A stretch of DNA of 42,657 nt, taken from sequence record PP925827.1. One strand, 5' to 3'. Within the stretch, counting starts at the first letter, position 1, and every line of letters starts with the position of its first letter. Under the pieces are notes generated by a model. The model was not told where the DNA came from. It did not search any database and saw only the letters and a program-made list of their open reading frames with translations. Both the position numbers and the translations under genes were made by a program. The DNA is from Escherichia phage Flotzy. Positions 25,711-26,801 of this stretch are shown here, piece after piece.

Positions 25711-26348
25711 GCGGATTCGAAGTTTATAACAGTGCCGGCAAGTTGCTCGTCGATTCGCAAAACAGGTCCACCCTTTTTTATGATCAGCGTTCTCTGGGGG
25801 CTGTGACTGAAAAAGGGTTTTACCGGGTAGACAGCCCGTTTGGTGACGGAAGCACGCTGGGATTTACCCAGCAACAATTCTGGAATGACGGGAATTTGCG
25901 CTGGCTTCAACTGGATGCAAATAAGTATGGTTTACCCGGCGCCGATCTTCTTGAGGATAATGCAGGGAGGATGATACGGACGACGCGAAATATTGGAATG
26001 CAGAGCGGTTACCTTGATGTATTCGACGCCGGTGGAAACCTTATCTGGAGTGCAGCATCAGCATCGAAAATGCCCAGGTTAGTTGGTTTTTTTGATGTGC
26101 CAGCCAGTTATGATCTGCAGAACAATACCTTTGCGATAAACCTCGGCTTTAACCCATGGATTTTGGTTAACAACTGTCCGGGAAACCTGAGTGATGATGG
26201 TGGGGCGACTGGTTACTCAGGGGTCGCTTTAAAATGGACTGGCTCACAGCTGCAGGGCAGGTATATATCCAAAAATCAGCGCAACTGGAGCCAGATACTT
26301 CAGGGGAGAGGATTACGAATTCCAATCGCTCAGTTTGTCGGAATTTGA
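25707..26348 (+). CDS. hypothetical protein (tail-associated region)
   Basis: 213-aa ORF translationally coupled to previous ORF. Confidence 0.45.
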   Translation: MSGFEVYNSAGKLLVDSQNRSTLFYDQRSLGAVTEKGFYRVDSPFGDGSTLGFTQQQFWNDGNLRWLQLDANKYGLPGADLLEDNAGRMIRTTRNIGMQSGYLDVFDAGGNLIWSAASASKMPRLVGFFDVPASYDLQNNTFAINLGFNPWILVNNCPGNLSDDGGATGYSGVALKWTGSQLQGRYISKNQRNWSQILQGRGLRIPIAQFVGI

Positions 26349-26675
26349 TGCTGGCGGGACGCGTGGGTATTGAGTAGCGATCAGGTCTTGCTTCACACCT
26401 TTTGCAGGTTCGAAGCGGTATACGACATCAAGCTTATCTGTTTTCTTATAACAGATATTGCTGATCCGCTTATTTATATGTCGGCTGAAAATGCCATTAC
26501 TACTGTCTGAAATTACGTTAACTTCCCTCGTAGCGCAGTCAATATTCACATGAATATCTCCCCCAAGAGATATGCGCGCCGCATCCACCGGGTAATCCAT
26601 TTTGAAGACATAGTCTCTGCCTTTTTCGGCACAGCCAGCCATCAGCAAAAGTGCCACGGCAAATAATCGTTTCAT
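26313..26675 (-). CDS. lipoprotein (convergent insert)
   Basis: MKRLFAVALLLMAGC signal peptide with lipobox; AT-rich; opposite orientation to flanking late genes. Confidence 0.55.
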   Translation of the reverse strand: MKRLFAVALLLMAGCAEKGRDYVFKMDYPVDAARISLGGDIHVNIDCATREVNVISDSSNGIFSRHINKRISNICYKKTDKLDVVYRFEPAKGVKQDLIATQYPRVPPASNSDKLSDWNS

Positions 26676-26742
26676 TTCTACATTCCTGTATCTGCGGGAA
26701 TATCCATTTTATTCGAGTTTAAAAAATAGTCAGATTGATAAG

Positions 26743-26770
26743 AGCGATCAATTTTACATTATTGATCGCT
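26743..26770. promoter_or_regulatory. perfect 10-bp inverted repeat with three clustered GATC sites upstream of tail-fibre gene
   Basis: AGCGATCAAT-tttacatt-ATTGATCGCT; GATC at 26745, 26763 and 26777. Confidence 0.4.
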
Positions 26771-26801
26771 TTAAACGATCGTTATTATCGTGAGGTAGTT
26801 C

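Follow-up and report, generated by a model that had tools for sequence, protein, structure and literature searches.

What does the short intergenic element in front of the side tail-fibre gene of Escherichia phage Flotzy control, and by what means? The window examined here is the whole 42,657-nucleotide stretch of sequence record PP925827.1; the gene order of its late region is of the lambda type, and the window is that of a lambdoid phage. Among the plus-strand late genes lies a minus-strand gene encoding a lipoprotein (lipobox LMAGC), and between this gene and the tail-fibre ATG (26802) is a 126-bp spacer that contains a perfect 10-bp inverted repeat and three GATC sites within ~35 bp. An initial annotation had noticed all of these features, each of which is present, and had proposed a methylation-sensitive switch upstream of the tail-fibre gene. 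Comparison with related phages assigns the element to the lipoprotein gene instead, and its resemblance to proven regulatory sites makes it a probable switch of the kind governed by OxyR and Dam.

The spacer and the gene that it serves

The lipoprotein gene and the elements of the spacer are as follows (ORF, open reading frame; UTR, untranslated region; half-site scores and cor cassettes are explained below).

26313-26675, minus strand: lipoprotein gene, 120 aa (ORF list, homologues, codon-position conservation).
26676-26801, no strand: spacer between the lipoprotein gene and the tail-fibre gene, 126 bp (ORF boundaries).
26682-26701, no strand: conserved hairpin ATTCCTGT-ATCT-GCGGGAAT in the predicted 5' UTR of the lipoprotein mRNA; stem conserved, loop variable.
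26706-26711, minus strand: predicted -10 hexamer TAAAAT, with a 16-bp spacer to the -35 (promoter scan); near-invariant in 64 relatives, and aligned with the extended -10 TGnTATnnT of cor.
26728-26733, minus strand: predicted -35 hexamer CTGACT (promoter scan); invariant in relatives.
26734-26748: OxyR-like half-site U2, plus strand ATTGATAAGAGCGAT, gene sense ATCGCTCTTATCAAT; 8/10; about -35 to -49; carries GATC 26746.
26743-26770: perfect 10-bp inverted repeat, AGCGATCAAT at 26743-52 and ATTGATCGCT at 26761-70, with an 8-nt variable loop; spans the inner ends of U2 and U1.
26746-26780: three Dam target sites, GATC at 26746, 26764 and 26777; spacing 18 and 13 bp, span 35 bp.
26765-26779: OxyR-like half-site U1, ATCGCTTTAAACGAT; 8/10; about -66 to -80; flanked by GATCs 26764 and 26777.

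The GATC triple at 26746-26780 is the only one within <=50 bp in the window. GATC is over-represented across the window (215 occurrences, 170 +/- 11.5 expected), and a triple within 35 bp arises somewhere in 52% of Markov-1 shuffles of the window, so that clustering alone is not significant; two of the three sites are automatic, because the repeat duplicates a GATC-bearing arm in the opposite orientation. A count of perfect 10-bp inverted repeats with a loop of <=20 nt across the window gave 9 matches, located at 7 different places, where 0.86 would be expected.

Around 100 related loci were gathered from phage records, E. coli prophages, GTDB genomes and IMG/VR, and conservation of the spacer was computed on the 64 distinct relatives of the same spacer type (40 distinct spacer versions). 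The mean majority fraction across the spacer is 0.948, compared with 0.73 and 0.81 at the third codon positions of the lipoprotein and tail-fibre genes, respectively, and is comparable to that of first and second codon positions. Conservation above the third-codon level implies that the element is functional and that the spacer is under purifying selection. All three GATCs are retained in 39 of the 40 spacer versions. The core of the repeat (CGATCAAT/ATTGATCG) is almost invariant, with two single-sequence exceptions, both in the right arm; its outer pairs vary by way of G.U-type intermediates and 2+2 double changes.

The repeat was also considered as a terminator, a role that is ruled out by the missing U-tract: only 4 of the 10 stem pairs are G-C, the stem is followed by TTAAAC, and a terminator scan of the area returned just a weak 6-bp alternative at 26763-81. 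No further copies of the repeat are present in the phage, it is unlike the phage's own cI/cro operators, and an Rfam search of the region gave no match.

Which of the two flanking genes does this conserved element serve? The answer comes from phages in which the corresponding place is taken by cor, the product of which is an FhuA-inactivating exclusion lipoprotein (PMC3594210). In mEp390 the same slot holds N15-like gp22 and gp23, then cor, a terminator and the tail-fibre gene. The sequence upstream of mEp390 cor, TGATTGATCGTTTTGAGCGATCAATAAAAAATAATTGATCTACATAATCAAT, aligns throughout with the spacer of the window read in the sense of the lipoprotein gene, AACGATCGTTTAAAGCGATCAATAATGTAAAATTGATCGCTCTTATCAAT. 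Both the window and the cor cassettes contain four alternately oriented elements of ~8 bp (consensus ATTGATCG) with centre spacings of 15, 16 and 11 bp; these are followed by a -35 region, a -10 (TAAAAT in the window, TGnTATnnT in cor) and an ATG 70-74 nt past the third element. Phage records with the cassette in front of cor number 54 in all, among them phi80, HK022, HK75, mEp213 and mEp390; it also stands before diverse Cor variants in IMG/VR contigs, again 70-74 nt from the ATG. In the cor phages it is directed away from the tail-fibre gene, with cor and the terminator in between, and no such element is found in front of the tail-fibre homologues of HK97, mEp390 and phi80. Homology to the region upstream of cor, together with absence before the tail-fibre homologues, places the element with the lipoprotein gene: judged by these alignments, the spacer supplies the minus-strand gene, and not the tail-fibre gene, with its promoter and control cassette, contrary to the framing of the initial annotation. 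That annotation had also called the lipoprotein gene convergent, which holds with respect to the upstream plus-strand ORF at 25707-26348 (a 36-nt overlap); with respect to the tail-fibre gene it is divergent.

By analogy, the lipoprotein gene would be an independently transcribed 'moron' lodged in the cor slot of phi80- and HK022-type phages. It shares with the cor moron of phi80, N15, HK022 and the mEp phages its position after J and two small ORFs and before the side tail-fibre gene, a homologous upstream cassette and promoter, and a small product of the outer-membrane lipoprotein type with conserved cysteines (PMC3594210). The two differ in that Cor is an unrelated protein of 77 aa whereas the window protein has 120 aa and is TonB_C-like, and in that the window gene is inverted and is not followed by an intrinsic terminator (none was found on the minus strand downstream of 26313, where the end of the gene overlaps ORF 25707-26348).

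From the predicted sigma-70 promoter, transcription of the lipoprotein gene would start near 26699 on the minus strand. The hairpin at 26682-26701 includes, on the minus strand, the Shine-Dalgarno sequence AGGA; on the plus strand it was flagged as terminator-like but lacks an adjacent U-tract.

Among cor cassettes, GATC sites are mostly but not universally retained. In an unbiased sample of 80 loci, picked by Cor protein alone from 407 in IMG/VR, 30 of 37 distinct cassettes have the full set of three GATCs and a further 3 have two; the HK022/HK75 group has one. The three-GATC, OxyR-like form stands before classical cor in phi80 (locus L308, 3180-3240), mEp390 (L100, 2095-2150), mEp213 and most of the sampled Cor loci (L224-L303). 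A megablast search with the phi80 cassette against complete E. coli genomes gave 4 matches, from a query too short for an estimate of prevalence.

The cassette, in the form GATCG-N7-CGATCAAT-N8-ATTGATC, also precedes other small genes in IMG/VR loci (L163, L172, L217, L123, L147, L214 and L182), among them one for a hydrophobic protein of 56 aa and one for a membrane-anchored protein of 100 aa. Possibly the cassette serves prophage accessory genes at large as an exchangeable module of control.

Similarity to OxyR/Dam switches

Switches operated by OxyR and Dam are the textbook form of heritable DNA-methylation phase variation in enterobacteria, and the known examples are no more than a handful (agn43, gtr, opvAB and mom). 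In these, Dam is supplied by the host; Escherichia and Enterobacter, the home of the window's relatives, encode both Dam and OxyR. The phage-encoded Dam-like enzyme to which the initial annotation drew attention does exist, as a PF05869 gene at 38618-39952, but nothing links it to the site.

The regulatory regions of known Dam/OxyR-controlled genes were compared in one script, using a half-site consensus, ATAGnTnnnAnCTAT, with 10 specified positions. Two half-sites in the spacer, U2 and U1, score 8/10. At none of the 10 specified positions does U1 differ from OxyR(A) and OxyR(C) of P22 gtr or from the distal half-site of agn43. The start-to-start distance between U1 and U2 is 31 bp, as it is in the cor cassettes, and is 32 bp in agn43 and gtr. 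A score of 8/10 is attained at just 14 positions in the 42.6-kb window, and the sole pair of these lying 20-34 bp apart is 26734/26765. The spacer thus holds two half-sites of the OxyR consensus at a spacing compatible with a tetramer, with GATCs within or at the edges of the half-sites. The GATC spacing follows the same pattern: 18/13 in the window, 18/13 in Mu mom, 19/13 in agn43 and 13 in the gtr pairs. An exact match of 16 nt, ACATTATTGATCGCTT, is common to the window and the gtr OxyR(C) region. Scored against the 37-bp OxyR consensus, the window reaches 10/16 and 13/20, and both agn43 and the mEp390 cor cassette reach 11/16 and 14/20; the background frequency of scores >=13/20 in this phage is 9e-5. 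A second exact match to ATCGnTnnnAnCGAT (ATCGCTGCCAACGAT) lies at 23702-23716 in the J-like gene; it is unaccompanied by another half-site and probably arose by chance.

Conservation within the half-sites falls on the positions that the consensus specifies. Among 40 distinct sequences, entropy is 0.095 at the 20 specified positions and 0.643 at the 10 unspecified ones (permutation p=1e-4); in the cor cassettes the corresponding values are 0.105 and 0.332 (p=0.05; 36 distinct sequences, chosen by protein). In HK022 and HK75 two GATCs have been lost and the half-site cores retained. One of the HK022 changes turns GATC into GATT (ATCG to ATTG, still 8/10) and the other is a G to T change in a GATC just outside the core, so that half-site scores are kept. 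Loss of GATCs with retention of cores is what is expected of a site that serves first of all for protein binding, with Dam sensitivity as an added layer, since lost in some lineages.

Of the proven sites, agn43 (flu, in the E. coli cryptic prophage CP4-44) comprises two 8/10 half-sites, ATAGAATAAAACGAT and ATCGTTTATATCGAT, 32 bp apart; one GATC ends the first half-site and the second has a GATC on each side, an order repeated in the window. It has a single OxyR site (PMC2909390). Read from its promoter hexamers, that site covers -10 and +1, downstream of the promoter, and OxyR represses; the site in the window lies upstream of the -35. The genes controlled also differ: an autotransporter in agn43 and, by prediction, a lipoprotein here. 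The switch of the gtr operon of P22 and Salmonella has half-sites A (ATCGGTAACAACGAT), B (ATAGATAAAAACTAT, 10/10) and C (ATCGCTTGTATCGAT) 32 bp apart and GATC pairs spaced by 13 bp. It shares with the window, beyond the 16-nt match, the unit ATTGATCG-N7-CGATCAAT with two GATCs 13 bp apart, and it too is phage-borne; gtr is expressed from a prophage and alters the cell surface in a way that affects phage infection (PMC2909390). The window differs in having two half-sites and three GATCs, compared with three half-sites, four GATCs and two OxyR positions in gtr (AB activating; BC repressing, over the -35). For gtr, electrophoretic mobility shift assays by Broadbent et al. (2010) demonstrated binding of OxyR to AB and to BC and its loss upon Dam methylation, and the same paper showed expression to be phase-variable; the spacing of the half-sites is that of reduced OxyR (PMC2909390). 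Mu mom has three GATCs at exactly 18/13 upstream of Pmom; its half-sites score below 8/10 against the consensus, the activator C is also needed, and phase variation is not established (PMC2909390).

Since half-site sequence, half-site spacing and GATC spacing match those of agn43, gtr and mom, we consider the spacer to be, with fair probability, an OxyR/Dam epigenetic switch upstream of the lipoprotein promoter: a new, predicted member of the kind, in which two OxyR-type half-sites are overlaid with three Dam sites. The methylation-sensitive switch of the initial annotation thereby gains strong comparative support, although the switch itself is a prediction; the functional units are more likely the two OxyR-like 15-mers at 26734-48 and 26765-79 than the arms, as such, of the perfect repeat, which spans the inner ends of both 15-mers.

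The mechanism would be as follows. A sigma-70 promoter (-35 at 26733-28, -10 at 26711-06) would read leftwards into the lipoprotein gene, with U2 and U1 directly upstream and the GATCs at about -50, -68 and -81. A tetramer of host OxyR would occupy U1 and U2 together, on unmethylated DNA only; bound OxyR would shield the GATCs from Dam, and methylated GATCs would exclude OxyR. Competition between the two after replication would generate heritable ON and OFF lineages, as described for agn43 and gtr (PMC2909390), and the lipoprotein would be ON in some lysogens and OFF in others. What the sequences show directly is the layout of the cassette, its conservation, its homology to the cor cassettes and its agreement in sequence and spacing with proven OxyR/Dam sites; OxyR binding, its sensitivity to methylation, bistability and the sign of control are what we infer.

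As to that sign, activation and repression appear about evenly balanced. A distal site at about -73 and a proximal one at about -42, abutting the -35, form the classical layout of a LysR-type activated promoter, and the poor -35 of the cor cassettes (TATACC) likewise favours activation. Repression is suggested by mom, in which the OxyR site is also upstream and OxyR represses, and by agn43, which is repressed likewise.

Several observations weigh against an OxyR/Dam switch. The OxyR consensus is degenerate, and its T-N11-A core is common to other LysR-type regulators; U2 is weaker in the cor cassettes (6-7/10); and conservation extends to the 16 bp between U1 and U2, for which a simple model of two half-sites offers no explanation. 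The site lies upstream of the -35, compared with a position over -10/+1 in agn43 and over the -35 for the repressing site of gtr, and because of this difference those precedents do not tell what binding would bring about here. For the lipoprotein gene, promoter and start site are themselves predictions. Finally, the switch is dispensable for the lipoprotein gene, because a set of 'type-2' relatives (described below) carries that gene behind a GATC-free upstream region and the HK022 group works with the one GATC that it keeps.

Other explanations were weighed. In one, the four ATTGATCG-like elements bind a different protein (another LysR-type regulator, Fur, H-NS, SeqA or some phage or host factor) that controls the lipoprotein promoter, there is no Dam switch, and the GATCs merely belong to the recognition sequence. 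The elements are indeed conserved where GATCs have been lost (the HK022 group), the 16 bp between the half-sites are conserved too, TGAT-N7-ATCA in U2 agrees in its outer spacing with a Fur 7-1-7 site (10/14, scored by hand), and other LysR-type proteins, HdfR among them, are reported to compete with Dam as well (PMC6735912). The match is, however, specific to proven OxyR sites (the 10 gtr A/C positions, the 31-32-bp spacing and the 18-19/13 GATCs), the resemblances to Fur and H-NS are weak, and the repeat is single in the phage and unlike its cI/cro operators. We regard binding by another protein without a Dam switch as unlikely, if still deserving of attention. That the repeat and the GATC cluster are functionless chance features of an AT-rich spacer would accord with the frequency of GATC triples in shuffled windows (52%), yet conservation far above the level of synonymous sites, in 64 relatives and across two lipoprotein gene families, effectively refutes it, and an architecture common to three proven switches also speaks against it; we attach next to no weight to it.

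Two further explanations turn the element towards rightward transcription. In one, the repeat would form a hairpin in late RNA transcribed rightwards, immediately 5' of the ribosome-binding site of the tail-fibre gene, where it would act as a processing site, stabiliser or attenuator. The plus-strand RNA of the spacer folds well (z=-4.1), the outer stem pairs shift through G.U to full compensation with no A.C cells on the plus strand, and RNAalifold extends the stem by GAUUG/CGAUC to ~20 bp in total. The covariation nonetheless amounts to about 3-4 independent events, and the eight core pairs are almost invariant and free of compensatory change, which suggests a constraint on sequence and not on shape; the absence of a U-tract and of an Rfam match speaks against it as well. 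In the cor phages, moreover, the cassette is opposite relative to late transcription and the equivalent stem is 7-8 bp, and a role in late RNA can therefore not be the conserved function. Such a hairpin role seems very improbable. In the other, the switch would control a rightward tail-fibre promoter in the manner of agn43, in the order promoter, one-GATC half-site, two-GATC half-site, gene. The order of half-sites and GATCs on the plus strand is colinear with agn43, and a weak promoter-like sequence (TTGATA-16-CATTAT at 26735-62) overlaps the sites; its putative -10 coincides with the spacer positions that vary most (26759-60), and promoter-like matches are no commoner than in shuffled sequence (2, against 2.1 expected). 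The tail-fibre homologues of HK97, mEp390 and phi80 lack the cassette, and in cor phages this orientation would face back into gp23. Lambdoid late genes are transcribed from a Q-dependent late promoter, as is generally known, which likewise argues against a promoter here. With its -10 not conserved and the homologues without a cassette, the rightward promoter was rejected, and control of the tail-fibre gene by such a switch is very improbable.

Other candidate sites in the spacer were set aside. A GATC box of the Lrp/pap type (ACGATC) was noted and rejected, its spacing being unlike that of pap; Broadbent et al. likewise found the GATC context of gtr to be unlike pap (PMC2909390). Comparison by eye with the consensus sequences of IHF, FNR, Fur, PhoP, CpxR, LacI-family proteins and H-NS gave only weak or partial matches that serve as leads, namely the outer tetranucleotides of Fur (10/14) and the H-NS motif (8/10).

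The lipoprotein and its possible role in superinfection exclusion

If the cassette is a switch, the nature of the protein under its control becomes of interest. The lipoprotein begins with MKRLFAVALLLMAGC, a signal peptide with the lipobox LMAGC and Ala at +2. Its homologues number 51, all from Enterobacteriaceae wherever the source names an organism; Cys15, Cys47 and Cys75 are invariant in 16 homologues, and the +2 residue is never Asp. Signal peptide, lipobox and invariant cysteine together identify a bacterial lipoprotein. Codon positions 1, 2 and 3 are conserved at 0.92, 0.97 and 0.73, a pattern which, with the invariant cysteines, indicates a real coding gene. Given Ala at +2 and the two further invariant cysteines, the protein is most likely anchored on the periplasmic side of the outer membrane, in its inner leaflet.

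Pfam and NCBIfam annotation gave no match for the lipoprotein, and its PHROG match (phrog_25729, function unknown) was uninformative. A profile of the family matches the FusB/TonB C-terminal domain in PDB (E=0.011), with the motif YP..A...G.V aligned. Searched against 1.8 billion proteins, the profile matched protein P0065 (E=1.6e-7) over residues 770-826, a stretch that lies inside a Pfam TonB_C domain (771-845), one of four in that protein. No member of the lipoprotein family gave a direct match to PF03544, even at E up to 10. By the profile matches, the lipoprotein is a homologue of the TonB C-terminal domain (PF03544 superfamily).

By its position the protein is a putative superinfection-exclusion protein, analogous to the product of cor. 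It is not classed as Cor, with which it shares only slot and cassette: profile and family searches with the lipoprotein, which included no pairwise comparison with Cor, returned no Cor-type protein of 77-79 aa and no Cor family. A lipid-anchored mimic of the TonB domain that engages the TonB box of a TonB-dependent receptor would be a plausible new mechanism of exclusion, because FhuA can be jammed from the periplasmic side by a lipoprotein, T5 Llp (PMC9586334). Llp and the Rtp-type factors are likewise encoded beside a receptor-binding locus and act on the periplasmic face of the receptor (PMC9586334; bioRxiv 10.64898/2026.04.02.716166). No similarity to Llp in sequence or fold was detected; the fold of the window lipoprotein is that of the TonB C-terminal domain.

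The 'type-2' relatives mentioned above (L049, L054, L059, L061, L069, L073, L077-L084, L086, L092 and L097) have the same lipoprotein body with another signal peptide, MKARLLLTAITFFMFGC. Their upstream region is unrelated, free of GATC and contains a terminator, and they adjoin a tail-fibre gene like lambda Stf; the joint of the recombination falls within the region coding for the signal peptide.

Taken together with the cor cassettes, the locus raises the possibility, which we put forward tentatively, that superinfection exclusion is epigenetically phase-variable in a large group of lambdoid phages (by means of cor, of phi80 and its relatives, and of the TonB-like lipoprotein). A part of the lysogens would then block their own receptor, a form of bet-hedging between resistance to phage and loss of a TonB-dependent nutrient transporter; in the present phage this would be accomplished by a lipid-anchored mimic of the TonB C-terminal domain acting at the TonB box. 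If true, the receptor-blocking exclusion lipoproteins of lambdoid phages would be a new class of target for OxyR/Dam switches, and the resistance conferred by a prophage, along with the loss of a nutrient transporter, would be confined to a subpopulation. This would bear on escape from phage therapy, on uptake of iron and vitamins in lysogens and on the regulation of morons. The cassette precedes cor in phi80 and in many mEp and HK phages, and in most of the 80 Cor loci sampled from IMG/VR. Interest is added both by the cassette being common to the classical cor genes and by the protein that it controls here being a lipoprotein with a TonB domain, which separately suggests a new way of jamming TonB-dependent receptors. 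Within a limited literature, nothing relevant was found that connects OxyR or Dam with cor, FhuA or superinfection exclusion, which is weak evidence that the link is unpublished.

Neighbouring genes and minor observations

Other genes to which the text has referred are the following.

21851-25414, plus strand: J-like tail-tip gene (ORF list).
25408-25710 and 25707-26348, plus strand: two small ORFs of 100 and 213 aa, 3' of the J-like gene (phrog_7961 and phrog_4524, function unknown).
26802-28085, plus strand: side tail-fibre gene, 427 aa, PF25670 (ORF list, Pfam), with the Shine-Dalgarno sequence GAGG at 26793-96; a neighbour, outside the switch.
38618-39952: Dam gene, PF05869 (Pfam), beside C5 and N6/N4 methyltransferase genes.

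The structural genes are ~97% identical to those of phages Eeyore, LLS and mEp043/213, and the tail genes ~94% identical to those of phi80. The small ORFs at 25408-26348 and the lipoprotein gene always occur together, even where the C-terminus of J and the tail fibre differ. The small ORFs form a putative receptor-binding module, as positional analogues of gp22 and gp23 of N15 and phi80. That a locus for receptor binding follows gpJ and is accompanied by a cognate exclusion protein is a published idea (PMC8594841; bioRxiv 10.64898/2026.04.02.716166), and the constant linkage of the lipoprotein gene to these J-associated ORFs fits it.

In the close relative phage LLS (L001, 3409-3465) an annotated invertible segment and two opposed tail-fibre genes lie downstream of the same module of lipoprotein gene and cassette. 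The window has no invertible segment of this type, and the difference marks the tail-fibre end as a hotspot of exchange. The tail-fibre gene is separated from the integrase gene (29369-30562, minus strand) by a stretch that includes a DinI-like gene (28155-28421, minus strand) and a UmuD-like ORF. Related E. coli prophages adjoin ssrA; a search of 29100-29230 for tRNA and tmRNA genes found none, though a perfect repeat is present there. DNA methyltransferases of three sorts are encoded in the phage, one of the N6/N4 type, the Dam of PF05869 and a C5 cytosine enzyme, and there is also an adjacent pair of a eukaryote-like Ser/Thr protein kinase and a PP2C phosphatase; the regions concerned are 2029-3057, 38618-39952, 39891-41882 and 4562-6066.

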